A model generated the notes under the pieces. It worked only from the letters and a program-made list of their open reading frames with translations, did no database searches and was not told the origin of the DNA. A stretch of DNA of 64,000 nt from Candidatus Micrarchaeota archaeon (lineage in GTDB: Archaea > B1Sed10-29 > JAJSAI01): positions 953 through 64,952 of the forward strand of contig CAZVAJ010000003.1 in the NCBI GenBank assembly GCA_964625085.1, given 5' to 3'. Below, piece by piece: positions 12,727 through 51,177 of the stretch (position 1 is its first letter; each line of letters starts with the position of its first letter). The translations under genes were made by a program, and so were the position numbers.

Positions 12727-12827
12727 TGCGGGGATGGCAGAGCGGCTATGCAACCGGCTGCAGTTACTCTTGCTTCCAACGAGAGGAACAGGGACCGGTA
12801 GACGGGAGTTCAAATCTCCCTCCCCGC
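12727..12827 (+). tRNA. tRNA-Cys (anticodon GCA) with ~30-nt intron at canonical 37/38 position
   Basis: 101 nt; acceptor GCGGGGA/TCCCCGC, U73, D stem GCA/TGC with G13.A22, anticodon stem ACCGG...CCGGT with loop CTGCAG-[intron 12771-12800 containing hairpin CTCTTG-cttccaa-CGAGAG]-A, T arm GGGAG-TTCAAAT-CTCCC; no CCA encoded. Confidence 0.7.
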
Positions 12828-12833
12828 TCTGAA

Positions 12834-13833: not shown

Positions 13834-15000
13834 GTGAGAAAAATCAATCTAGACAAGTTCAAGAGGATAGAAAGAGAAACAAAAGAAATCAACATTGATC
13901 CTTTACAGACAGGAGGCAAGATCCCTGAATTCACCAAGCCCAGCTTGATCACTTGGCTTGACGGTTACTCTATCTGTGATTTCTGCCCCGGAAGCTTATT
14001 CGATCTGAAAACACCCCCTGTAAAACTTTTTGTTGAGGAGATACTACCCGAATTCCTCGGGTGCGATCAAACTAGAATAACCCACGGAGCAAGAGAAGGA
14101 AAATATGCCATCATGCACGCCGTGACCAAACCTGGAGACTGGATCGTCGTTGATGCTAACGCTCACTACTCAAGCATCGTGGCAGCAGAGAGAGCCAAGC
14201 TCAACATAAAGAAAACAGAAAAGCCTGCAGAACCAGAATACAAGATAAATCCAGAAGACTACAAAAAAGCGCTTGAGGAGATTGAAGACGGCACAGGCAA
14301 TCCAGCTGCCCTCGCACTACTAACCTACCCTGACGGAAGCTACGGAAACCTTCCTGACGCTAAAAAAATCTCCGAAATATGCAAGAGCAAAGGAGTCCCT
14401 TTGATCCTAAACGGAGCATACTCAGTTGGCAGAATGCCGCTGAACATGAAAGAGTTAGGAGCTGACTTTATTGTTGGATCAGGACACAAGAGCATGGCTG
14501 CAAGCGGACCAGTGGGAGTGCTTGGTACAACAGAGGAGTATGCTGAAAAACTCTTCCGAAGATCAGAGTACTACCCTGCAAAGGAGGTTGAAATGCTCGG
14601 GTGTACTGTAAGAGGAATGCCTGCAGTGTCACTAATGTTATCCTTCCCGTTCGTGCAGGAAAGAGTAAAACACTGGGAAAAAGAGGTGGAAAACGCAAGA
14701 TGGTTCTCTGAACAAATGGAAAAGCAGGAAATTGCAGTACAGTACGGAGAAAAGCCGCACAATCATGACCTCATGTTTTTCATGTCAGAAAAACTATACC
14801 AGATTTCCAAAAAACACAAGAAAAGAGGGTTCTTCCTATACCAAGGGCTTAAGAAAAGAGGAATATCAGGAATAAAACCAGGGCTAACAAAACAGTTCAA
14901 GCTGAGCACATACGGCCTTGAAAAAGAAGACCTGGAAAAGGTTATAAACGCGCTCCTGGAAATAATTGAAGAAAACAACCACTTTCTCAACGACCAATAA
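13834..15000 (+). CDS. pscS: O-phosphoseryl-tRNA(Cys):Cys-tRNA synthase (SepCysS), PLP-dependent
   Basis: N-terminal INIDPLQTGG...DGYSICDFC and ITHGAREGKYAIMHAVTKPGDWIVVDANAHYSSIVAAERA match SepCysS family; PLP-lysine motif GSGHKSMAASGP. Confidence 0.85.
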   Translation: MRKINLDKFKRIERETKEINIDPLQTGGKIPEFTKPSLITWLDGYSICDFCPGSLFDLKTPPVKLFVEEILPEFLGCDQTRITHGAREGKYAIMHAVTKPGDWIVVDANAHYSSIVAAERAKLNIKKTEKPAEPEYKINPEDYKKALEEIEDGTGNPAALALLTYPDGSYGNLPDAKKISEICKSKGVPLILNGAYSVGRMPLNMKELGADFIVGSGHKSMAASGPVGVLGTTEEYAEKLFRRSEYYPAKEVEMLGCTVRGMPAVSLMLSFPFVQERVKHWEKEVENARWFSEQMEKQEIAVQYGEKPHNHDLMFFMSEKLYQISKKHKKRGFFLYQGLKKRGISGIKPGLTKQFKLSTYGLEKEDLEKVINALLEIIEENNHFLNDQ

Positions 15001-15007
15001 AAGTAAC

Positions 15008-15079
15008 GGGCTCGTAGATCAGTGGAAGATCGCTTGCTTCGCAAGCAAGAGGTCGGGGGTTCAAATCCCCCCGAGTCCA
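15008..15079 (+). tRNA. tRNA-Ala (anticodon CGC)
   Basis: Acceptor GGGCTCG/CGAGTCC with the Ala identity G3.U70 wobble, A73; D arm GATC-AGTGGAA-GATC; anticodon arm CTTGC-TTCGCAA-GCAAG; T arm GGGGG-TTCAAAT-CCCCC. Confidence 0.9.
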
Positions 15080-30384: not shown

Positions 30385-31470
30385 ATGCAACACAAATTTT
30401 ATATAATCTCACAAAAGATAACATTGCTAATGATAAAAAGCGTTGGACTTTTCGGAGATGAAACAAACCTTTTAGCTACTTCTGCTGTTGAAGAGACAAT
30501 CAATTTCATGAAACGCAATAAAGTAGAATGCTTTACTGACGAGAAACTGGGACTCGATCACAATCCCGTGAATGTGAAAGATCTGGAATGCGATCTTGTC
30601 CTCTGTTTTGGTGGGGATGGAGAACTCTTAAAAACGTTCCATAATCTTAGAAAAAAACAGATTCCAGTCATGGGAATCAACTGTGGGCAACTTGGGTTCA
30701 TGATGGATCTAGACAGAGCCAACTTCCTGAACTACCTGCCGCTGATCATAAAAGAAAAATTCCACATCCAAAAGAGAAACCGTCTTGAGATCAAAGGAAG
30801 TCGGGAAAAAGTGCCCTTAGCGCTTAATGAAATTGTCATCGCTCCATCAAAACCTGCAACAGTATTAAGATACGGGCTGAACATTGACAACGAAAAACTG
30901 TGGAGGGACAATTCTGATGGAATAATAATTTCAACACCAAGTGGTTCAACAGGGTATGCTCTTTCTGCAGGCGGCCCTATATGCTCGTACAATTCAGATG
31001 TCATGCTGATTGTTCCCTTAAACTCATTAAGCGAAACAAAGCCTCTTGTGATACCCAATAAATCAAAAGTAGAGATCTTTGACATTGCGTCACGCTATGG
31101 TACAGAAATAATCATAGACGGACAAGTGAGAATGAAAGCGGGGCAAAAAGTGGAAATAAGTGCTGCAGGGTCGCCGGCACTGCTTGCAAGAATGACTAAC
31201 CAGACTTACTCGCCCATCTCATCAAAAATACGGGAGAAGATATGTAACCTCCCAAACAGATCAATAAGGGAGTCAGCTCCGCCAGTGAAACTCATACTGA
31301 AAGTGTTAGAATCAGAAGGGGCATTAACAGAAACAGAGTTGATAAACAAAACAAACCTCCCTGTCAGCACAGTGCACAGGGCGGTAAAAGAACTGATGGA
31401 CAAGGAATTAATCAATAAGAAACAATATATAGGAGATTCAGGACAACCCCTCTACGTGCTAAATGTTTAG
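30385..31470 (+). CDS. nadK: NAD(+) kinase fused to C-terminal winged-helix domain
   Basis: GGDGELLKT, NEIVI, DGIIISTPSGSTGYALSAGGPI; extra ~80-aa C-terminal wHTH ALTETELINKTNLPVSTVHRAVKELMDKELI. Confidence 0.85.
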   Translation: MQHKFYIISQKITLLMIKSVGLFGDETNLLATSAVEETINFMKRNKVECFTDEKLGLDHNPVNVKDLECDLVLCFGGDGELLKTFHNLRKKQIPVMGINCGQLGFMMDLDRANFLNYLPLIIKEKFHIQKRNRLEIKGSREKVPLALNEIVIAPSKPATVLRYGLNIDNEKLWRDNSDGIIISTPSGSTGYALSAGGPICSYNSDVMLIVPLNSLSETKPLVIPNKSKVEIFDIASRYGTEIIIDGQVRMKAGQKVEISAAGSPALLARMTNQTYSPISSKIREKICNLPNRSIRESAPPVKLILKVLESEGALTETELINKTNLPVSTVHRAVKELMDKELINKKQYIGDSGQPLYVLNV

Positions 31471-31507: not shown

Positions 31508-31984
31508 TCATTCCTTTCTTTTGACTCTGCGGACTTCAAGGATTTCAGCCCCTCCTATCTTTTTTAGGGAATACTCAATAGTGTAGGGCGTGTTCCTGTA
31601 TCTTGCAGCCAACATCCTCACGGTCTTTATGGCTTCCATAGGAGGGTTCACGAATTTTATTGTTCCTTTCTCTTCTCTTAGAAGTTTGAGCAGGGCTTGC
31701 TCTCTTATTTTCTGCACTCCCTTTACTGGAGAAAAGTGAAAGTGGATCACTTGATCTTTTGTTTTTTCAACTATTCCCACTGGCTCGCTATCCCCTGCCC
31801 TAACAAGAATTATGCTCTGCTCTTCTTTCACGCTGGGTATTGCCTTTAGTACCCCTCTCTGTCTGTAAGATTTTACCATCAGGTGTACTGCATTTATCTT
31901 GTCTTTCCCTGTTTCAACCCGAGAAAACCTCACGCTTTTTTCCAGGGGCGTTTCTCTTTTCAGTACCCTAAGCTTTCTTGTCAA
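31508..31984 (-). CDS. Hypothetical protein (158 aa)
   Basis: Complete ORF; no recognised motif. Confidence 0.35.
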   Translation of the reverse strand: MTRKLRVLKRETPLEKSVRFSRVETGKDKINAVHLMVKSYRQRGVLKAIPSVKEEQSIILVRAGDSEPVGIVEKTKDQVIHFHFSPVKGVQKIREQALLKLLREEKGTIKFVNPPMEAIKTVRMLAARYRNTPYTIEYSLKKIGGAEILEVRRVKRKE

Positions 31985-31985
31985 A

Positions 31986-33278
31986 TTACTGTCCCCCCAA
32001 CAATCTTTTCACGCCTGCCGTGAGAGTTGCGAGTGATTCTTTTTGCCCCACTGGATTCTTTTTGTCCTTAACTTCTTCCCATGTTGCCTCGTCCAAAAGA
32101 TTGGGAACACTAATCCCAAGTTCTTTTGTGGCTTGTTGGATTGCTTGGTACGTCTCAGAATCAGGTTTAAAGTAACACGCTATAACCTTGTACTTTTCAG
32201 CATGCGCCTTTAAGAATTTTTTAACCCGCTCTGCTGTCACCTGGATATACTCTTGTTTTATCTCAGGAGTCTCTTCCCATTCTGGCCAGTCATACGAATT
32301 AAAAGGGTAATAGTCTGAGAACTCTATTGGTACCACTCCTGGAGTGGAAACCACTGTTCTTTGTATTTCTCTTAAGTGTCCAGTTCTCTTGAGCGCTTTG
32401 AATATCTTCTGGTGAGTCTGGCTCTTAGGGTAGGGTTTTCTGTATGAGCATGGCAAAAATAGTAGCAGTTCTTTTTTTCTTGGCTCATAGAACCTCTGGA
32501 GATAGTCCTGCCACACCTCAAAGTGAGGGTGGTTTAATGATTCTGAGGTTGCGCCCACTATTTTTACTCTTTTTTCAGGGGGGAACTTTGGCACAAAAAG
32601 GTAGTTCTCAAAATCTGTCTCAACCTTAGGATTATCTTTCCATTTTCCTACCCACTCTTCAAATTCTTTTTTGTCAAGCGGCTTCCACTCCCCCTTAATC
32701 CACAGATCAAACAGGGGTGCTTTCGAGTGGGGGAATGTGTTTATCGCGACTATTTCATCTGCATGTTCTATCGCGAACTCCATTGTCTTATCAAAATCAG
32801 CCTTGGTCCCGAAGGGGATGTTAACCATAACGTATGCTCTGACCTTTGCTCCAGAATCATGAAGCACTTTAACAGCATTTAAGAAGTCTTCTGAAGTGAA
32901 TCCTTTCGCGTATTTTTTTAGGACCTCATCATTCGCAGATTCCAGACCGATTGCAACTGTCAGCTTAAGGCCCTTGAATGGCTTTAAAGCGTCAGGGGTT
33001 ATGTATTCTGGCCTTGATTCTATCACAAGTTCTTGGATCCCTTGTGATTTGATGTATTCCGCAAACCATTCCCTAAACTGAGGGGAGAACTGTTTATCAT
33101 CAAGAAAAGAGCCTGATGCAAACACTTTAAGCTTTTTTACTCCTTTAAGTGCCCTTTTTTGGATTAGCTGTTTTGTCTGTTCTTCTGTGTACTTTCCTTC
33201 CAGCTTGCCCCAGCCGCAGGCATAGCATGCTCCCCAGCTGCATTTTCCCACGCTTAGTATAAGAGTTTCTGCTTTCAT
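31986..33278 (-). CDS. Radical SAM-like enzyme with atypical Cx4Cx2C cluster motif and C-terminal uncharacterised domain
   Basis: N-terminal KCSWGACYAC; radical SAM core signatures FASGSF, ESRPE, AIGLESANDEVLKKYAKGFTSEDF. Confidence 0.6.
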   Translation of the reverse strand: MKAETLILSVGKCSWGACYACGWGKLEGKYTEEQTKQLIQKRALKGVKKLKVFASGSFLDDKQFSPQFREWFAEYIKSQGIQELVIESRPEYITPDALKPFKGLKLTVAIGLESANDEVLKKYAKGFTSEDFLNAVKVLHDSGAKVRAYVMVNIPFGTKADFDKTMEFAIEHADEIVAINTFPHSKAPLFDLWIKGEWKPLDKKEFEEWVGKWKDNPKVETDFENYLFVPKFPPEKRVKIVGATSESLNHPHFEVWQDYLQRFYEPRKKELLLFLPCSYRKPYPKSQTHQKIFKALKRTGHLREIQRTVVSTPGVVPIEFSDYYPFNSYDWPEWEETPEIKQEYIQVTAERVKKFLKAHAEKYKVIACYFKPDSETYQAIQQATKELGISVPNLLDEATWEEVKDKKNPVGQKESLATLTAGVKRLLGGQ

Positions 33279-33282
33279 TTTA

Positions 33283-34041
33283 TCACGATACCTGGTTGTA
33301 TACTCCCTTTAGTTCAAGAGGGGACAGGCTCCTTACTTTCTTGTTATTGTTTATCTCTTTAGAGTAGTACTGTTGAACAACACTGCTTATGTTTTTGTTA
33401 GGGTGCCTAAAAACTTGTTTTATGAACTCTTCAAACCCTTGATCTTGGGGTACCTTTTTTCTTTTTAGTACGAGAACTGCTGAGTCCACTTTGGGCATGG
33501 GATGGAAATAACCACGTGGAACCTTCTCTGCTATCTTTCCTTCGTAGTAGTACTGGGTAATGACTGAAATGGGACCATATTCATGCCATCCAGGAGCTGC
33601 CAACACCTTTTCTGCGAACTCTTTTTGGAATGTTAAGACACAAAGTTCAGGAGATTCTTTCATTATTTTCATTAAGGCAGAAGCAGAAATGGAAAAAGGC
33701 ATGTTTGAAACGACCTTGTTGTACTCAGGAAGGTTTGCTTTCAGGTAGTCTTCAAACACAAACTGAATGTTTTGGAATTCAGAAAGTTCTGTTCTTAATA
33801 ACTGTTCAAGTCGTTTGTCTTTTTCTACTGCTATCACTTTGCCTGCTTTTCTTGCCAGTTCCCTTGTTAAAAACCCTGGACCTGGCCCAATTTCTAGTAC
33901 AGTGTCTTCTGGTTTCAGTTCTGCGTATCTAACTATTCTTTCAATAGTCCCTGAGTCTGCCATAAAATACTGATCTAAAGCATGAGACTGTCTAAAACGG
34001 TATTTAACAGAAAGCCTCATTATCTCCTGCCGAAGGTTCAT
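33283..34041 (-). CDS. ksgA: 16S rRNA (adenine1518/1519-N6)-dimethyltransferase KsgA/Dim1
   Basis: SAM motif VLEIGPGPGFLTRELA, motif IV VSNMPF. Confidence 0.9.
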   Translation of the reverse strand: MNLRQEIMRLSVKYRFRQSHALDQYFMADSGTIERIVRYAELKPEDTVLEIGPGPGFLTRELARKAGKVIAVEKDKRLEQLLRTELSEFQNIQFVFEDYLKANLPEYNKVVSNMPFSISASALMKIMKESPELCVLTFQKEFAEKVLAAPGWHEYGPISVITQYYYEGKIAEKVPRGYFHPMPKVDSAVLVLKRKKVPQDQGFEEFIKQVFRHPNKNISSVVQQYYSKEINNNKKVRSLSPLELKGVYNQVS

Positions 34042-34044
34042 CCC

Positions 34045-34629
34045 CTACCGCCTGTATCCAGGCCTGTGCTCCCTGTACGGCCTTGTAAAAATGTAGTACT
34101 TGGTGTCTCCTTTAAGCTCTTCTATGATCCTTTCTACAATTATGTTCTTTGGATCAGGCATAAGAGCAACTCTTTCGGAGATATCCTTAAAACTTTGAAA
34201 TGGCTTTTTTTCTCTTTGGGCGAGCAGGTCCCACATGTGCTTTTTCCCTATCCCTGGCAGCAGTTCAAGAGAGTGTTGTCTGACGGTGATACTGCCTGCT
34301 TTGTTAAAGAAGTTAACGAACTGTTCTTCTTTTTTACTAACAAGATCCTGTAACACATCTTCAAGCTCTTTTTGAGCAGTATTAGTAAGCTGGCTATACT
34401 TGATTCTTCCTTTTATGAATTGTACCTTCTCCCTTTTTTCAGGACCAATGTACACTCTTTCTCTAAGGTCAACTTTGACCTCTCTTTTTATGATTAGTTC
34501 AAGGAGTGTGAAATGATCTTCCCCTATGGCTTGCGCTATCGGTTCCTTCTTAAAATGCCCCGGGTACCCGATTGGAAGGTAATCAAGCACAATCGCATAT
34601 TCTTCCTTCAATTTCAGCACCTTTATCAT
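34045..34629 (-). CDS. DUF655-family HhH protein (conserved archaeal neighbour of rpoF/ksgA)
   Basis: HhH LELLPGIGKKHMWDLL; conserved L21e-RpoF-DUF655-KsgA gene order. Confidence 0.7.
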   Translation of the reverse strand: MIKVLKLKEEYAIVLDYLPIGYPGHFKKEPIAQAIGEDHFTLLELIIKREVKVDLRERVYIGPEKREKVQFIKGRIKYSQLTNTAQKELEDVLQDLVSKKEEQFVNFFNKAGSITVRQHSLELLPGIGKKHMWDLLAQREKKPFQSFKDISERVALMPDPKNIIVERIIEELKGDTKYYIFTRPYREHRPGYRR

Positions 34630-34949
34630 AGTTCAGAGAGTATATCAAGAATCTTTTCTATTTCTCCTTTGTCAATTTTTCTTTTTTGGAACATTGCCTG
34701 AACCTGTTCTGGTATTTCGGGTTTTGTGTTTACGAGTTGTACTGCCTCTTCTACTGTAAACCCGAGATCTATAAGCGCGTTTTTAGCTTTTTCTGTTTTA
34801 GTTGGGGCCGCAGCCATCTTGTTCAGGTAGGTGTAAGTAATCTTCTGTTCGTATGTTTGTTCTTCCCGCTTTTTTTTCTCTGCAGAGAGAATTTCTTTAG
34901 CTTCCGCTAATGTAACTGGTTTTTCTTCCAACACTTTTTTACCTATCAT
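34626..34949 (-). CDS. rpoF: DNA-directed RNA polymerase subunit Rpo4/F
   Basis: 107 aa; positional conservation between L21e and DUF655-KsgA; 4-nt overlap with downstream gene. Confidence 0.6.
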   Translation of the reverse strand: MIGKKVLEEKPVTLAEAKEILSAEKKKREEQTYEQKITYTYLNKMAAAPTKTEKAKNALIDLGFTVEEAVQLVNTKPEIPEQVQAMFQKRKIDKGEIEKILDILSEL

Positions 34950-34989
34950 TAACTATCACCCTCTTTTCCATAGTCATGAAAAGAACAGC

Positions 34990-35289
34990 TCACGCTGTTT
35001 GTTTTTGTAGATGGACTGGATGAACTATTACATCCTTGTATGAATCCAAGTCCTTTACTTTTACAACGTAACAAGACCCTTGCTTTCTGATAATCTTTCC
35101 AGTCCTGCCGCAAAATCGTCTGTAAGGGAGACCCTGGTGCACGCTTGGTTCTGGCTTAATATGTACTGAGTCTCCAACTTCAAACTTTTTCAAGAAAGCG
35201 TTAACATTAGGCATGCCCCTCTTTCTAGGAGGCTTTGACATCTTACCCCTTGTTTTGGATCTTGGGCCTTTATGCTTGTATTTCACCAT
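34990..35289 (-). CDS. rpl21e: Ribosomal protein L21e
   Basis: 99 aa basic; FEVGDSVHIKPEPSVHQGLPYRRFCGRTGKI...YVVKV typical L21e. Confidence 0.9.
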   Translation of the reverse strand: MVKYKHKGPRSKTRGKMSKPPRKRGMPNVNAFLKKFEVGDSVHIKPEPSVHQGLPYRRFCGRTGKIIRKQGSCYVVKVKDLDSYKDVIVHPVHLQKQTA

Positions 35290-35368
35290 GGTTATCGCCA
35301 GTATTTTTTCAAACTATCAAATATTTAAACCAAACTATTTATATTTTTAACTACAAAACAGTGGTTTC

Positions 35369-35686
35369 ATGGGAGATGATGACAAAAAAGGTGCTTGGAT
35401 AACTGAAGACGCTTTCCTAGTCCTTGGAATGGGCTTTTTCGTGATTTGCCTCTTTCTCGAATACACGCCAGGGTATTTTGCCCTGCTTTCAGGCCTGCTT
35501 AGCTTACTCGGAGTGTTTTCAGTGTTTTTAATGATTGTTGGAACATACAAGTACCTTACAAAACAGGAAACTTTTACTGTTGCTGCGGGATTTGTCCTTG
35601 CATTTCTGATAACTGTGTTCTTTAGCCCTGTGTATGTAATAAGACCTATTGCGGCAATACTCTCCATACTATCAGGCCTATTCTAG
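35369..35686 (+). CDS. Small integral membrane protein (3 TM)
   Basis: Hydrophobic helices; no family recognised. Confidence 0.4.
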   Translation: MGDDDKKGAWITEDAFLVLGMGFFVICLFLEYTPGYFALLSGLLSLLGVFSVFLMIVGTYKYLTKQETFTVAAGFVLAFLITVFFSPVYVIRPIAAILSILSGLF

Positions 35687-35703
35687 TGCTCTACATCGCA
35701 ACC

Positions 35704-35730
35704 TTTATAAAGTTTATAAAGGTATAAAGG
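35704..35730 (+). promoter_or_regulatory. Tandem TATA-box-like repeats TTTATAAAG-TTTATAAAG-GTATAAAGG upstream of TBP-like gene
   Basis: Three consecutive archaeal TATA-consensus copies 26-52 nt upstream of ATG at 35756; strong RBS AGGAGGT follows. Confidence 0.5.
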
Positions 35731-35755
35731 TTGATTTAAAAAAGGAGGTCCTAGA

Positions 35756-36079
35756 ATGCCTGCTAAAAAGAAAACAACAAAGAAACCTGCACAAAAGAGA
35801 AGCAGAAAAAAGAAGATCGAGTACCGGATAGAGAACATAGTTGCTTCAGCAAGTCTGAACGTGGAACTTGACTTGTACGCAATAGCAAGAGAGGTCCCTA
35901 ATGTAGAATATGAACCAGAACAGTTTCCTGGTGCAATACTAAAACTTAAAGAGCCAAGAATAACTCTTCTGCTTTTCAAGAACGGAAAACTCATATGCGC
36001 AGGAGCTAAAAGCGAGAAACAAGTTGAAGAAGCAATACACACTGCTTACAACATGGTCAAGCACTGCATAAAAAAATAA
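35756..36079 (+). CDS. Single-repeat TATA-box-binding-protein (TBP) domain protein with basic N-terminal tail
   Basis: RIENIVASASLNVELDLYAIA...NVEYEPEQFPGAILKLKEPRITLLLFKNGKLICAGAKSEKQVEEAI closely matches one TBP repeat (RIENIVAS, EYEPEQFPG, SGK-V-GAKS); only 107 aa, stop follows one repeat; no second repeat in flanking frames. Confidence 0.75.
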   Translation: MPAKKKTTKKPAQKRSRKKKIEYRIENIVASASLNVELDLYAIAREVPNVEYEPEQFPGAILKLKEPRITLLLFKNGKLICAGAKSEKQVEEAIHTAYNMVKHCIKK

Positions 36080-36084
36080 ACCCC

Positions 36085-36786
36085 TCATTCTTCATTTTCC
36101 GGCTCTTCTTGGTCAAGTTCTCTTACATCAATCCCTGTTTCTTTAGAGAGTTGTTCCATTGTTTCTAGCACAGGCACACTCTCTTCTGGCAGCTCTTCTT
36201 CTGCTTCTTCAGGAGCCTCTTGCTGTTCTTTGCCAACTCCTTCAAGAACCGTGTCGATATTCATTAGAAGTATCAATAACTCAAGCACAAGCGTGAGCTT
36301 CAACGGATCTTTCATGTAATGCTGCGCATAATACTTCAGTATCGTGACATACCTCCTGCTTATGTACCTGCCTTTATACTCTTTTAGCAGTTCCATGAGT
36401 TCTCTTTTTAGGATTCTTGGATCTTGTACTTCTTCAGGCACCTGAATATTCTGCACGCAAAACTGTGCGATCTGGTGCAAAACTTCAACAGGCATTGATA
36501 AAACAAGGTCTGGCTCGGGAAGCTTGTACATGTTTAGGTATAGATCTTTCTCAGGAAATTTACCGAACAGATCCATTGTAAACCTTCTGATTATCATGGC
36601 CCTTGCGCTGTAATGCGTCGCGTAATAACTGTCTTCGCCTTTTTTCAACGCCTCTTCCGCAATTTTATTATTCTGCTCATAGAAGTAACCCAACGCGAAG
36701 TAGATAAGTACACGTTTATCTGGCTCGCCGTACTTGAACTTGCTCTTGAACTTTTTGAACTTGCTCAAAAGATCTGTATCCATCAC
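36085..36786 (-). CDS. Hypothetical protein with acidic C-terminal tail
   Basis: 233 aa; no recognised motif. Confidence 0.4.
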   Translation of the reverse strand: MMDTDLLSKFKKFKSKFKYGEPDKRVLIYFALGYFYEQNNKIAEEALKKGEDSYYATHYSARAMIIRRFTMDLFGKFPEKDLYLNMYKLPEPDLVLSMPVEVLHQIAQFCVQNIQVPEEVQDPRILKRELMELLKEYKGRYISRRYVTILKYYAQHYMKDPLKLTLVLELLILLMNIDTVLEGVGKEQQEAPEEAEEELPEESVPVLETMEQLSKETGIDVRELDQEEPENEE

Positions 36787-36806
36787 TCCAGAAAAGGAGG
36801 CTTAGA

Positions 36807-37635
36807 TTATAAAACCTTTTGCATGCGCTCTTCAGCTTCTGTTCTGTTAAAACCTGAAAGGGGAACAAACACCGGAAAACCTTTTCCAAAGTACTTGAAT
36901 GACTCTTCCAACTCAGTTTTCATGTAAGGGAGGATTAGGGCAAGAGCTTTTTCTAGTTCTGCAGCTTCGAAAAGCTCTTTGTCAGGATACCAATTTATTT
37001 TCTTTCCAGATGCCCATTTTTTCAGCATACTAGGCCGTTCTTTTCCGACAAGCGAAATTTCCAGCCCCCTTCTCATCACCATCCAAGCGGCAAGCAGTCC
37101 AAAATCATCCTCCGCAAGGGCCACTGCTTTTGCTCCTGCAGTCCCGTAAGGCAATCCCCCTGGCCCTTTGAATGTTTCAGAAAATAGGTATGCTTTTCCT
37201 TTGAATATTTCTATGCCCACCTGCTGTTCCGGATTCTTCAGCCTGACCTTCAGCCCTAATTCTTTCACAATCCTTTCTCCAACCAGTTCGTTAACCTGCT
37301 GTGAAGTAAGGTTAAACGTCTTATCAAGCCTTTGGGTCCTAACCGCAAAAGTTTTCCCAGGCTCACACAGCTTGACTGCTTCTTCTGCAATCTTATCAAT
37401 ATTTAGGTCCAGTTCAACTGCAGGGGAATAGGAAGATACCCCAAAAACCTTGGACAGTTTATCCAATGCTACTTTTTCATCCCCTCTAACAATTATCCTC
37501 CAGTACTTGTTACTGATCTTGTGATTTGGGAGAACCCGCTGGATGTTAGAAGCAAGAACCTTTATGAAACGCCCTCGCGTTGGCTCTGCCTTGGTATAAA
37601 TTTCTGAGTGTCTTACGAGTATAATAACACACCAT
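36807..37635 (-). pseudogene. thiI: ThiI-like tRNA-modification gene fragment (N-terminal ferredoxin-like + THUMP), 5' frameshift and degenerate PP-loop; probable pseudogene or split-gene partner
   Basis: Track ORF 36807-37466 starts at TTG; in-frame upstream 75 codons (no ATG/GTG/TTG) encode VIILVRHSEIYTK...RFIKVLASNIQRVL matching ThiI N-terminus (MKFIIKLFPEITIK...RFIKILTGNIRNVL); an ATG GTG at 37635-37630 is +1 out of frame (extra T at 37629). PP-loop position reads ALAEDDFG instead of SGGxDS; protein ends ~85 aa later. Confidence 0.5.
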
Positions 37636-37717
37636 CCCCTTGTATCACGTGTACATTCTAATTGTACTATTACTACGTATAAAAATGATTATAAAGGAAT
37701 AAAACGGAGTTCATACG

Positions 37718-38875
37718 GTGAAAGAGAAGATGCCCGCCACTATTGACAGAAACCTACTCCCTGTTGAAGAAAGGTTAAAGATATTAGAACTAGAAAACAG
37801 AATGCTTCAACAGGAAACTGAAACGCTCCAAAAACAGCTTCTTGCAGCTCAAAATGAGCTTAATAAAATGAAAAAAAATCCTCTGATTATCGCAACAGTA
37901 CAGGAGAAGGTTGGAAAAGACCAGGCTGTAGTAAAAAGCCCCACAGGCATGCTGATCCTGATAGACGCGCCAGAGGATGTAAAACCAGGGGAGAGAGTAA
38001 AACTAAACCAGCACACTCTCTCGTTCATAGGAAAACTTCCTCCTGAAAAAACTGCGTTTGTTGCAGGAACAGAAGTAATAGAAAAGCCCAAAGTCAGCTT
38101 TGAAGATATAGGAGGGCTTGAAGAACAGATACAAGAAATACAGGAAGCAGTAGAACTTCCCCTGCTCAAGCCAGAATTGTTCAACAAGGTGGGCATAACC
38201 CCTCCAAAGGGTGTGTTGCTTTATGGACCGCCGGGGTGCGGAAAAACAATGCTGGTCAAAGCTATTGCAAAAGAGACTAATTCAACATTCATAAGACTCG
38301 TCGGCTCAGAGATGGTGAAAAAGTTCATAGGGGAAGGAGCAAAACTTGTCAAAGAAGTATTCGAGCTAGCGAAAGAAAAGGCCCCAAGCATTCTTTTCAT
38401 TGACGAGATTGATGCAGTTGCGGCCAAACGGCTTGACGAAACCACCGGAGGAGACAGAGAAGTAAACAGAACACTAATGCAACTGCTTTCAGAACTGGAT
38501 GGGTTTAACGAGCTTGAAAACGTGAAGATAATAGGAGCCACCAACAGAATGGACATACTTGACCCTGCTTTGATACGCCCTGGCAGGTTTGACAGGCTTA
38601 TTGAAATACCCGCGCCCAACAAAAAAGCAAGAGGAGAGATATTCAAAATACACATAAAGAACATGAATGTCTCCAAAGTAGACGTAAAATGGCTCGCGGA
38701 ACAATCAGAAGGAGCAATAGGCGCTGAAATAAAAGCGATATGCACTGAAGCAGGAATGTTTGCAATAAGAGAAGGCCAAGACACTGTAACAAAAAAACAC
38801 TTCAAAATGGCCTTGGATAAGGTGCTCGGGCCAGTGGTTGAAGTCGGAGGCGAAGAAAAAAGAAGCTACATGTAA
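37718..38875 (+). CDS. pan: Proteasome-activating nucleotidase PAN (AAA+ ATPase)
   Basis: N-terminal coiled coil, OB domain, Walker A GPPGCGKT, Walker B ILFIDEID, second region of homology. Confidence 0.92.
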   Translation: MKEKMPATIDRNLLPVEERLKILELENRMLQQETETLQKQLLAAQNELNKMKKNPLIIATVQEKVGKDQAVVKSPTGMLILIDAPEDVKPGERVKLNQHTLSFIGKLPPEKTAFVAGTEVIEKPKVSFEDIGGLEEQIQEIQEAVELPLLKPELFNKVGITPPKGVLLYGPPGCGKTMLVKAIAKETNSTFIRLVGSEMVKKFIGEGAKLVKEVFELAKEKAPSILFIDEIDAVAAKRLDETTGGDREVNRTLMQLLSELDGFNELENVKIIGATNRMDILDPALIRPGRFDRLIEIPAPNKKARGEIFKIHIKNMNVSKVDVKWLAEQSEGAIGAEIKAICTEAGMFAIREGQDTVTKKHFKMALDKVLGPVVEVGGEEKRSYM

Positions 38876-38901
38876 TCCTTACAAGATGAGCTCCTTCAAG
38901 A

Positions 38902-39219
38902 TCATTTTTTCCTTTTCTTAGGACCCTTTTTATATAACTCTAACATCTTTTTTTCTCGTTCTGAAAAACCACTTTCTATAACGTCTCTTCTGGACAACTT
39001 AGCCAAAAATAGAGAAACACCACCATACTCCCTATCAATCACACTCCTCACATACTTAGGGGTCACATCATACCCTTTGTTCCGCATCCTTTCAACAAGC
39101 TCTTCAATAAGAACCCTAGAGGTCTCTCTATCCACGCGCACACTCGGTTCATGCCCCCGGATAAGCTTCTTAGCAAGCTCCTCACGCAGAGTTTTTAGAC
39201 GTGAATTTTTTATGGGCAT
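38902..39219 (-). CDS. Small basic hypothetical protein
   Basis: 105 aa ORF. Confidence 0.35.
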   Translation of the reverse strand: MPIKNSRLKTLREELAKKLIRGHEPSVRVDRETSRVLIEELVERMRNKGYDVTPKYVRSVIDREYGGVSLFLAKLSRRDVIESGFSEREKKMLELYKKGPKKRKK

Positions 39220-39252
39220 AATAATAAAAGGACTAGGAGGATATTAAAAGAT

Positions 39253-42003
39253 TTGTCTGTAAAGGATGATAAAATGAACCCACTAAAAGCAAAGATCAAG
39301 AAGCTGGCTGACCAGAATCCTGAAAAGTTCTATCCCGTGAGCGTGATCAAAGAACTTGGGTACGAAAGGCACCAATGTAAAAAGTGCGGCACTTTCTTCT
39401 GGTCCCAAGAGGTCTCTGACGTCTGCGGAGAACCAGAATGCTCTGGAGGATACAAGTTCGTGGGAAACCCTGTCGGGAAAGAGATGGATTTCATTCAAGG
39501 CTGGTCATGGTTCCGTGACCACATGGCCAAGAGAGGATACACCCCAATCAAGAGATATCCTCTGGCCGCGAGGTGGAGGGACGACACCGACTTCGTGCAG
39601 GCCAGCATCTACGACTTCCAGCCGCACGTGGTCACAGGAGAAGCAGACCCTCCAGCCAACCCACTAGTAGTCCCACAGTACTGCGCAAGGTTCAACGAAA
39701 TAGAGAATATAGGGATAACTGGCAGGCACAAAACAGGGTTTGTGATGATAGGCCAGCACGCGTTCAAATCCCTCTCTGAATTCGAGCAGGAAAAGTACTT
39801 CAAGGACTATCATGACTGGTTCACGCTCACTGCAGGAATACCTAAAGAAGAACTCAAGATTCATGAGAGTCAGTGGGCAGGAGGAGGCAATGCTGGCACG
39901 AGCATGGAATTCTTCGCAAAGGGCCTGGAACTAGGGAACCAAGTGTACATGACGTACGAGGTGAAAGGAGAAGACGAGCTTGTTCCCCTCTCCTTAAAAG
40001 TACTGGACATGGGTATGGGACAAGCCAGGACCCCGTGGCTCACTCAAGGATCCTCAAACATCTTCGAAGTAAGTTATCCTGACGTGTGCCAGAAACTGTA
40101 CCAAAAAACAGGAGTAAGACCAACGGGCTTGTACGAGAAGTTCATCCCTTACGGAAGTATTCTCGACGTGGACTCTGACGTGGAGCTTGAAAAAGCGTGG
40201 CAGGAGATTGCTAACAAGCTGGGAGAAGATGTGAAAACACTGAAAGGAGAAGTGCTGCCCGTTGCAGCAATGTTCTCAATAGCAGATCACACTCAGACCC
40301 TGCTTGTGGCGTTGAATGATGGAGTACTGCCCAGCAATGCAGGAGGGGGTTACAACCTAAGAGTCATACTCAGAAGAGCCCTTGGATTCATCCACAGGTA
40401 TGGGTGGAACCTGAACCTGCCTGAAGTATGCTACTGGCATGCAGAATACCTTAAACCACAATACCCAGAACTAATGGAAAACCTCGAAGAGGTTGCAGAA
40501 ATATTGGAGCACGAGGAAAAGAAGTACAAAGCAAGCAGGGAAAAAGCAAGTCGGAAGGTAGAAACACTGCTCAAGATAAAAGGAGATTTTTCCTTTAATG
40601 ACCTCAGGAAACTGTACGAGTCAGACGGGATAACTCCTGAAATGCTAAAAGAAGCTGCAGAAAGGCAGAACAAGGGTATTAGGATACCGGATGACTTCTA
40701 CCTCAAGCTCGAGGAAGTCAGAGAAAAAGAGAAAAAAGAAGAGACCAAACAGAGATCCCACTATCCTGTAGAAGGGATTCCTCCAACTGAAAAACTGTTC
40801 TATGAACCAATAAAAGAATTTGACGCGAGAGTACTCAAAACATTTGAACAGGATGGCAGGCACTTTGTTGTCCTTGACAAAACCGCGTTCTACGCGGTGG
40901 GAGGAGGACAAGACTGCGATCACGGAACACTAAACAACATTCGCGTCTTCCACGTGCTAAAGCAAGGAGAGGTTATAATACATGAAACAGAAAAACCAGT
41001 AGCCAGTGAGACTGTGCACGGCATTGTAGACTGGAAGCGGAGAATGCAGCTCACCAAAAACCACACTGCCACTCACATAATAAACGGGGCTGCCAGACAA
41101 TTACTGGGAAGCCACGTGTGGCAAGCAGGAGCTGAAAAAACAGTTGAAAAAGCAAGGCTTGACATAACCCACTATGAACAACTTTCAGAGGAACAAGTAC
41201 AAAAGATACAGGAAATAGCGAATCAAGTAGTAAATGAAAGCAGGCCTGTGATCAAAACATGGATGCCTAGAACCAAAGCTGAACAGGCGTATGGGTTCAG
41301 GCTGTACCAGGGGGGAGCAGTACCTGGAAAAACTATCAGGGTCGTGGAAGTAAAAGATTTTGATGTTGAGGCATGCGCTGGGACTCATTTGGATAACACG
41401 AAAGAAGCAGAGGAGATACTTATCCTGCGGACCAAAAAGATCCAGGACGGTATCGTCAGGATAGAGTTCGTGGCAGGACACGAAGTTGTCGAAAAGGAAA
41501 AGCAGAAGAAGAGGAAAGAAAAAGAAAAGAGGAAAGATGCGCTTCTTAAGCGAGCTGTAAAGCTCACGAATGAGATATTTAAGCTGGGCGGAAAACTGCC
41601 TGAAGAAAATTTGCGGAAGCTGCAGGCAGAGGAGATACTTGAAAAGATAAAAGAACTTGAAAAACAGCTTGTAAGACTCAAGGAAGAAAAAACCCTGAAA
41701 ACAGAATATGACTATCCAGTAGTACAAGTAAACGAACCAGACATGAAAGTTCTTGAAAAAATTGGCGGAAAACTTTTACAGAAATTCGGATACGGAGTGG
41801 TCATAGGGCCAGGGGTTGTCTTCGGCGTAAAAACCCCTGAATCCCAAGCAAGAGTGGAAGAAGCCGTCAAAAAAGCAGCAGAAGTAATGGACGGAAAAGC
41901 AGGGGGAAAAGGCAACGAATGGAAAGGAGGAGGCCCTGAAAAAGAGAAATTTAAAGAAGCTGCAGAAATCGTGAAAAGGTTTATAATGCCTGAAAACAAT
42001 TAA
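39253..42003 (+). CDS. alaS: Alanyl-tRNA synthetase
   Basis: 916 aa; archaeal N-terminal Zn segment HQCKKCGTFFWS; editing-domain motifs HTATHIINGAARQLLGSHVWQAG, CAGTH; C-terminal C-Ala domain. Confidence 0.92.
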   Translation: MSVKDDKMNPLKAKIKKLADQNPEKFYPVSVIKELGYERHQCKKCGTFFWSQEVSDVCGEPECSGGYKFVGNPVGKEMDFIQGWSWFRDHMAKRGYTPIKRYPLAARWRDDTDFVQASIYDFQPHVVTGEADPPANPLVVPQYCARFNEIENIGITGRHKTGFVMIGQHAFKSLSEFEQEKYFKDYHDWFTLTAGIPKEELKIHESQWAGGGNAGTSMEFFAKGLELGNQVYMTYEVKGEDELVPLSLKVLDMGMGQARTPWLTQGSSNIFEVSYPDVCQKLYQKTGVRPTGLYEKFIPYGSILDVDSDVELEKAWQEIANKLGEDVKTLKGEVLPVAAMFSIADHTQTLLVALNDGVLPSNAGGGYNLRVILRRALGFIHRYGWNLNLPEVCYWHAEYLKPQYPELMENLEEVAEILEHEEKKYKASREKASRKVETLLKIKGDFSFNDLRKLYESDGITPEMLKEAAERQNKGIRIPDDFYLKLEEVREKEKKEETKQRSHYPVEGIPPTEKLFYEPIKEFDARVLKTFEQDGRHFVVLDKTAFYAVGGGQDCDHGTLNNIRVFHVLKQGEVIIHETEKPVASETVHGIVDWKRRMQLTKNHTATHIINGAARQLLGSHVWQAGAEKTVEKARLDITHYEQLSEEQVQKIQEIANQVVNESRPVIKTWMPRTKAEQAYGFRLYQGGAVPGKTIRVVEVKDFDVEACAGTHLDNTKEAEEILILRTKKIQDGIVRIEFVAGHEVVEKEKQKKRKEKEKRKDALLKRAVKLTNEIFKLGGKLPEENLRKLQAEEILEKIKELEKQLVRLKEEKTLKTEYDYPVVQVNEPDMKVLEKIGGKLLQKFGYGVVIGPGVVFGVKTPESQARVEEAVKKAAEVMDGKAGGKGNEWKGGGPEKEKFKEAAEIVKRFIMPENN

Positions 42004-51033: not shown

Positions 51034-51162
51034 AAGCCTCGGGTGGGATTCGAACCCACGACCTGCTGCTCTCTCGATCCTCTTTAAGGGAAGAGGATAG
51101 AAGGAGAAACCGTAAGGTGTCTCCTCTTACGAGGCAGCCGCACTGCCACTGTGCTACCGAGG
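51034..51162 (-). tRNA. tRNA-Thr (anticodon CGU) with ~57-nt intron
   Basis: Minus strand: acceptor GCCTCGG/CCGAGGC, U73, D arm GCAC-AGTGGCA-GTGC, anticodon stem GCTGC...GCAGC with loop CTCGTA-[intron]-A, T arm GTGGG-TTCGAAT-CCCAC. Confidence 0.7.
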
Positions 51163-51177
51163 CAATCTGGCATATGA

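Follow-up and report, generated by a model that had tools for sequence, protein, structure and literature searches.

The 64-kb stretch of DNA analysed here (the window) carries a complete gene for a TATA-binding protein (TBP) of 107 residues that consists of a single lobe; the coding sequence occupies positions 35756..36079 of the plus strand, stop included. Judged by its best matches, the source is a Micrarchaeota-like (DPANN) archaeon. TBP is a textbook pseudo-symmetric protein, thought to descend from a homodimeric ancestor whose gene was duplicated and fused. The gene in the window lies in the slot that its closest relatives use for a two-lobe TBP, and corresponds by position to the canonical gene, of which it is an ortholog shortened by one lobe. 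We consider it probable that its product is a derived single-lobe TBP ortholog which works as a symmetric homodimeric TATA-binding saddle.

The assignment to TBP is based on several lines of comparison. The Pfam TBP family (PF00352) gives a single match to the ORF, at residues 23-103 (E 3e-29; 101 bits versus a cut-off of 22.9), and this match spans model positions 2-84 of 85. Hence, the feature of two lobes per polypeptide is absent from this protein, and the original prediction of an ORF with exactly one TBP repeat is borne out. The NCBIfam models of full-length TBP align with one half each, at 64-99 bits against cut-offs of 181-347, while in a PDB search each lobe of 1mp9 (E 4.5e-43), 1ais, 1pcz and 2z8u aligns to the same whole ORF. 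The lobe proper (35822..36064, + strand), as delimited by the Pfam envelope and an AF2 model, is predicted to hold five beta-strands and two helices. The motifs quoted from the sequence at the outset, RIENIVAS, EYEPEQFPG and NGKLICAGAKSE, are all found in the protein.

The residues expected to touch DNA and TFB are conserved. The stirrup EYEPEQFPG (residues 51-59; 35906..35932, + strand), located by its match to 1ais and by an alignment of 85 TBPs, includes the DNA-kinking Phe57; the second kinking phenylalanine, F74 (35975-35977, + strand), stands in an invariant column of the same alignment. V29 of strand S1 and F57 are likewise in invariant columns, N27 of S1 is nearly invariant (at least 90%), and E51-G59 is invariant among the 85 aligned TBPs, with P58 nearly so. 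We take F57 and F74 to be the counterparts of F99/F116 and F190/F207 in yeast TBP. The stirrup is identical to that of the C-terminal lobe of Pyrococcus woesei TBP (nceyepeqfpg) in entry 1ais, a TBP-TFB-DNA complex; Kosa et al. are said to have reported in 1997 that the C-lobe stirrup of TBP contacts TFB.

Ahead of the lobe, codons 1-20 (35756..35815, + strand) encode the tail MPAKKKTTKKPAQKRSRKKK, which is predicted to be disordered (model pLDDT 52-76). Eleven of its 20 residues are Lys or Arg, in agreement with the Lys-rich N-terminus first described, and its charge of +11 is extreme among the proteins compared. Given that the ATG at 35756 is the first start codon past the preceding stop in the ORF list, the basic tail is part of any product. 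A Shine-Dalgarno sequence, GGAGGT (35744..35749, + strand), lies 6 nt before this ATG, and similar GGAGG sites occur at other genes of the window. Within the tail-coding DNA, Tandem Repeats Finder reports 2.1 copies of an A-rich 13-bp tandem repeat, GCACAAAAAAGAA, at 35789-35815; replication slippage at this repeat may have been the source of tail growth.

The neighbourhood identifies the locus. On the minus strand, a divergent block encoding KsgA, DUF655, Rpo4/F and L21e (33283..35289), recognized from Pfam matches and synteny, marks the site of the canonical TBP in Micrarchaeota, and the KsgA-DUF655-Rpo4-L21e block stands beside TBP in L003, L005-L007, L015, L019-L021 and L162-L165. Between the block and the TBP gene lies an ORF for a 105-aa hydrophobic protein (35369..35686, + strand) with no Pfam match, a conserved upstream neighbour that measures 104 aa in L164 and 93 aa in L163. 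It shares its reading frame with the TBP gene, several in-frame stops lying between its end and the TBP ATG. On the other side, a convergent gene for a 233-aa protein with an acidic C-terminus and no Pfam match (36085..36786, - strand) ends 5 nt past the TBP stop; in L164 and L165, a convergent gene of 208 aa ends 1 nt past the TBP stop, with a THUMP gene further on. The closest relatives, P0004 (L162/L163) and P0005 (L164/L165), have a two-lobe TBP of 182 aa in the matching slot, the shared order being RadicalSAM/DUF5591-KsgA-DUF655-Rpo4-L21e (all minus strand), a small ORF on the plus strand, and TBP. Since this neighbourhood matches that of L162-L165 gene for gene, the window gene and the two-lobe TBP are orthologs by position. 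Related genomes thus hold a two-lobe TBP in the same slot, and single-lobe genes are present in other Micrarchaeota-type contigs as well.

A second TBP-like segment was sought across the 64-kb window by tblastn with a two-lobe relative and the ORF itself as queries, and none was found at E<=10. The earlier statement that no second repeat lies nearby therefore holds for the entire window. The flanks leave no room for another lobe either, as the upstream ORF ends at 35686 and the convergent gene at 36085. With one lobe per chain and no other in the window, the gene encodes, as originally read, a genuine stand-alone lobe, which could build a saddle only together with a partner. A scan of mid-sized ORFs in the window turned up no TFB gene.

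The gene itself is intact in more than one assembly. The exact protein (P0012) occurs on three contigs of different pipelines, including an NCBI contig of 113,646 bp. Another of the three, a Logan contig (run SRR35108318), corresponds to window positions 31695-39768 with 1 mismatch in 8074 bp; it is identical to the window at the TBP gene, runs unbroken through it, and reaches ~4 kb to either side. Logan contigs are de Bruijn graph assemblies with k=31, in which a hidden lobe sharing 31-mers with the visible one would cause a branch and a contig end, while a lobe sharing none would be assembled. Because the k=31 contig continues unbroken through the gene, the collapse of a second lobe during assembly appears unlikely. 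A check on P0035, a two-lobe TBP recorded in the same four source databases, showed that it comes from another sample.

The presumed promoter holds three tandem TATA-like 9-mers, TTTATAAAG TTTATAAAG GTATAAAGG, at 35704..35730 (+ strand), which Tandem Repeats Finder describes as three copies with a period of 9 and a score of 38; similar boxes stand upstream of orthologs. Four perfect TTTATAAA octamers occur in the 64-kb window, where 1.8 are expected, and two of the four are in this promoter. Two TTTATAAA boxes 10 bp apart precede the TBP gene of L022 and of L162, and two or three TATA boxes precede that of L164, L007, L013, L018, L012 and L002. Such multi-TATA sites lie 100-170 nt upstream of the TBP core, often ~10 bp apart, whatever the lobe number. 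Given that they precede one- and two-lobe orthologs alike, multiple boxes appear to be a lineage feature of the TBP promoter. Thus, the three tandem boxes noticed originally are real, though not peculiar to a half-TBP. They are consistent with strong or autoregulated expression, and the three boxes at 35704-35730 possibly serve alternative start sites. In archaea, the centre of the TATA box usually lies ~26 nt from the start site; if this spacing holds here, transcription would start near 35734, 35743 and 35752. The idea that a symmetric TBP is matched by palindromic TATA boxes genome-wide finds no support, as the upstream regions of the window show ordinary TTTATAWA/TTTAAA-type boxes and only the four perfect octamers.

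The gene is no unique relic; by sequence comparison, it is one of many single-lobe TBPs that Micrarchaeota-type archaea encode. The 160 loci drawn from GTDB species genomes and metagenomes include at least 30 TBP ORFs that are single-lobe and complete, meaning bounded by stops inside the contig, with lengths of 89-174 aa. L21e/DUF655 adjoins 12 of these 30. A protein search seeded with the single-lobe TBP of L029 returned 269 proteins, and the 120 of them that were listed are single-lobe without exception (90-174 aa); nearly all organism-named clusters among these 120 come from Micrarchaeota-type MAGs. Some of the genes are on long contigs (P0175 on one of 940,636 bp, another on CAWBCT010000005.1 of 659 kb). 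The listed proteins are mostly named 'hypothetical protein' by NCBI and TBP by JGI. P0203 and P0229, which are single-lobe archaeal TBPs, are filed by NCBI under Saccharimonadales and Baltobacteraceae bacteria, and their contigs are probably mis-binned.

Pairs of single-lobe genes have dN values of 0.05-0.13 with dS above 1, where synonymous sites are saturated, and the window gene compared with the lobes of L164 and L162 gives a dN of 0.18-0.24 with dS again saturated. These values indicate that single-lobe TBPs have long been maintained under strong purifying selection. As a class, they also have longer N-terminal tails: 67% of 121 single-lobe TBPs have a tail of at least 15 aa, versus 0 of 117 two-lobe TBPs. 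A basic tail as such was considered as a hallmark of the class and rejected, since net tail charge averages +4.0 per chain in single-lobe and +3.9 in two-lobe proteins; only the length of the N-tail differs. The single-lobe TBP at L011:4836-5303 has ~70 aa of N-terminal AKKKAVKKKPA repeats, reminiscent of histone H1 and other Lys-rich DNA-binding tails, and looks like an extreme form of the tail in the window.

How one lobe could come to suffice is suggested by the relatives. In other archaea, lobe 1 shares 54% identity with other first lobes and lobe 2 shares 57% with other second lobes, compared to 45% across types. In two-lobe TBPs of the Micrarchaeota type, identity within and between types is 0.436 versus 0.435 for lobe 1 and 0.426 versus 0.440 for lobe 2; judged by these values, the signal that distinguishes the first repeat (R1) from the second (R2) is lost. 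In the closest two-lobe relatives, the two lobes are 82-90% identical in amino acids. Furthermore, three two-lobe genes (L164:3577-4125, L162:6001-6549 and L003:4731-5309) hold perfectly identical inter-lobe tracts with diverged flanks, of 177, 93 and 89 bp, respectively. Between the two lobes of one gene, dS is 0.25 (L164) or 0.59 (L162), while orthologs are saturated. Identical tracts between diverged flanks bear the signature of recurrent intragenic gene conversion, here in the gene of an essential transcription factor and in three separate lineages. Lobes homogenized in this way would be functionally interchangeable, which is the precondition of a viable homodimer. The direct repeats formed by the two lobes are in frame at an offset of 273-279 nt, and so would provide a ready substrate for the loss of one lobe and no more; in the other direction, a tandem duplication could turn one lobe back into two. 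In L024 (4962-5658), a two-lobe TBP from a 'binchicken' co-assembly MAG, the second lobe is split over two frames, owing to a frameshift or to an error in sequencing.

When individual lobes were placed in a neighbour-joining tree, built on ~80 columns, all those of the Micrarchaeota type (first, second and single) separated from the outgroup with 89% bootstrap. The singles occupy four or more positions in this tree, among them an all-single clade of 22 members with 80% bootstrap and a subclade of it with 100%; bootstrap for the group that holds the window gene is low, at 12%. The history may have involved repeated loss, re-duplication from one lobe, or concerted evolution followed by loss, among which ~80 columns leave a choice. 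No clean chimera of an R1 5' part and an R2 3' part was seen in the window protein, whose diagnostic residues are mixed, and the deletion of one lobe in its ancestry is inferred from the relatives only. Because the gene matches a two-lobe TBP in position, its single-lobe state reads as derived and not primordial. The bearing on the duplication origin of TBP that was proposed at the outset is thus kept in one sense, as a natural reversal or re-enactment of that event, and given up in another, as a survival of the ancestor.

The structural model is compatible with a saddle. Two copies fused head to tail were predicted to form the full TBP saddle with a pLDDT of 91.4 and a pTM of 0.80, both tails being of low confidence, and the fusion model superimposes on solved TBPs with TM scores of 0.86-0.91 (target-normalized) and an rmsd of 1.6-2.7 Å. 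The use of a fused chain and of an alignment of 84 two-lobe TBPs biases this prediction towards the saddle, so these figures speak for compatibility and not for dimerization. A single-sequence AlphaFold prediction of the tandem fusion gave a pTM of 0.39 with strand S1 as a helix, and was discarded.

From the model and the sequence, we infer homodimerization, a TATA/TFB function and a role for the tail, and propose the following course of events. The starting point would have been a two-lobe TBP whose lobes were held near-identical by gene conversion within the gene. One of these in-frame lobes would then have been lost by recombination or slippage between the two, after which the basic tail was presumably gained or lengthened at the 5' end. 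Once the gene is expressed, two 107-aa chains would join by the normal sheet-to-sheet interface between lobes and give a perfectly symmetric saddle, each subunit contributing one DNA-kinking pair (F57 and F74) and one TFB-competent EYEPEQFPG stirrup. Such a dimer would bind and bend the TATA box and could recruit TFB on either stirrup, with direction set by TFB reading the BRE as in other archaea; Bell et al. reportedly showed in 1999 that the TFB-BRE interaction sets the polarity of archaeal transcription. The Lys/Arg tail would probably add non-specific affinity for DNA, offsetting the cost of assembling the dimer there.

Compared with known systems, the window protein is closest to the two-lobe Micrarchaeota TBPs (P0001-P0007; L162-L167), with which it shares 72-78% identity per lobe, the same synteny and multi-TATA promoters; these, however, are 180-186 aa long, show conversion tracts between their lobes and have N-tails of at most 9 aa, while the window gene has one lobe. 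Canonical archaeal TBPs (Sulfolobus acidocaldarius 1MP9, P. woesei 1AIS/1PCZ, Methanocaldococcus jannaschii 2Z8U) belong to the same Pfam family at 55-60% identity per lobe, with the same kinking phenylalanines and EYEPEQFPG stirrup. Unlike them, the window protein has one lobe per chain, so its saddle would have to be a homodimer, and carries a 20-aa basic N-tail. A 2021 survey of DPANN archaea lists TBP as conserved in ~89% of genomes.

Archaeal proteins with a single TBP domain are already on record (PMC3597702; PMC7221094). Halobacterial TbpA consists of a single TBP lobe and groups with the lobes of bona fide TBPs; it is one of several TBP paralogs beside full-length TBPs and is reported to be non-essential (Brindefalk et al. 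2013, PMC3597702). The window lobe resembles TbpA in being single and in clustering with genuine TBP lobes, but its gene stands in for TBP at the conserved locus, and genes like it make up deep clades without two-lobe members. The monopartite TBP-domain proteins of Thermococcales (82-136 aa, mostly 91-97; for example P. furiosus NP_578195 with 96 aa) are highly diverged, form a separate cluster, coexist with TBP and show only weak local similarity (PMC3597702); in contrast, the window protein is ~75% (72-78%) identical to the lobes of two-lobe TBPs and is not strongly diverged. The N-terminal domain of bacterial RNase HIII, also a single TBP-type lobe, binds double-stranded nucleic acid (PMC3597702, PMC7221094), but it is distant, bacterial and fused to RNase H, whereas the 107-aa ORF has no other domain and is bounded by stops on both sides. 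In full-text literature searches, we found no description of single-lobe TBPs in Micrarchaeota or DPANN, or of a TBP locus occupied by a single-lobe gene instead. What is new here is the positional replacement of canonical TBP by a single-lobe gene.

Several other readings of the gene were weighed. It might encode an accessory half-TBP beside an essential two-lobe TBP located elsewhere, serving as a TATA/TFB competitor or a specialized factor, as proposed for Halobacterium TbpA. The coexistence of the earlier single TBP-domain proteins of Halobacterium and Thermococcales with full-length TBPs (PMC3597702) is a precedent for this, and the part of the genome inspected here amounts to 64 kb. However, the gene occupies the canonical TBP locus and not a secondary site, its DNA- and TFB-contact residues are strictly conserved, DPANN genomes are small, and no single-lobe assembly with a second TBP locus was present among the best 80 GTDB matches; we regard an accessory role as unlikely, if still worth reckoning with. 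Much less probable is a heterodimeric TBP, a possibility raised at the outset, in which the lobe would pair with a different single-lobe protein encoded elsewhere to give an asymmetric saddle. Thermococcus barophilus and T. sibiricus do carry two monopartite genes each, but none of the loci examined has two single-lobe genes, no GTDB assembly among the matches listed has two single-lobe loci, and the lobes of this phylum already appear interchangeable, so that a distinct partner would be unneeded.

The possibility that a short-read assembler collapsed two near-identical lobes into one also has some basis, as the 89-177-bp identical tracts of the relatives are repeats that de Bruijn assemblers can mis-resolve, and the tail-less relatives of 89-90 aa in L010 and L013 could be such collapses. 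For the window gene, we hold it to be very improbable in view of the unbroken and identical Logan contig, the recurrence of the identical protein on contigs of different pipelines, a 20-aa N-tail typical of single-lobe TBPs and seen in none of the two-lobe proteins, and the deep all-single clades with members on the 659-kb and 940-kb contigs. Finally, the loss of half of a normally essential protein might suggest a recently truncated, non-functional pseudogene in decay. This we find scarcely credible: the ORF is intact and preceded by a Shine-Dalgarno site and strong TATA boxes, amino-acid identity to the relatives is 72-78% although synonymous sites are saturated, all invariant TBP positions are kept, and the single-lobe architecture persists across deep clades. 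Hence, a functional single-lobe TBP ortholog acting as a homodimer is the reading that we prefer.

A broader claim would be that the sole TBP is single-lobe here and in large clades of Micrarchaeota, so that all initiation depends on a symmetric homodimer, and that the phylum switches repeatedly between one and two lobes by recombination and gene conversion; for this, we see the case for and against as evenly balanced. If true, both the duplication that founded TBP and the undoing of it could be studied in living lineages. We know of no natural homodimeric TBP with a demonstrated role as a general transcription factor. With a single-lobe gene in the canonical locus, hundreds of conserved relatives of it, and two-lobe relatives in which gene conversion keeps the lobes alike, the duplication hypothesis becomes testable with natural proteins; it can be asked whether TATA is bound by such a symmetric dimer, which side TFB would choose, and how polarity would be set. 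There is also a gap in annotation: single-lobe TBPs are mostly 'hypothetical' at NCBI, and surveys that rely on full-length models could miss them; the window protein stays below the cut-offs of the NCBIfam full-length models.

Some other features of the window deserve mention. An Rfam tRNA match at 51035-51163 (- strand), not called by ARAGORN, extends over 129 nt, a length that suggests an intron-containing tRNA; an 88-nt tRNA-Gly called by ARAGORN at 12742-12829 may likewise carry an intron. The NAD kinase encoded at 30385-31470 (+ strand) ends in a fused winged-helix domain of the HTH_24/MarR-like kind. Just before a tRNA-Ala at 15008, a 295-aa ORF (14113-15000, + strand) matches only the C-terminal two-thirds of the model of SepSecS/SepCysS-type PLP enzymes (PF05889, positions 106-389), and its N-terminus may be miscalled or truncated.
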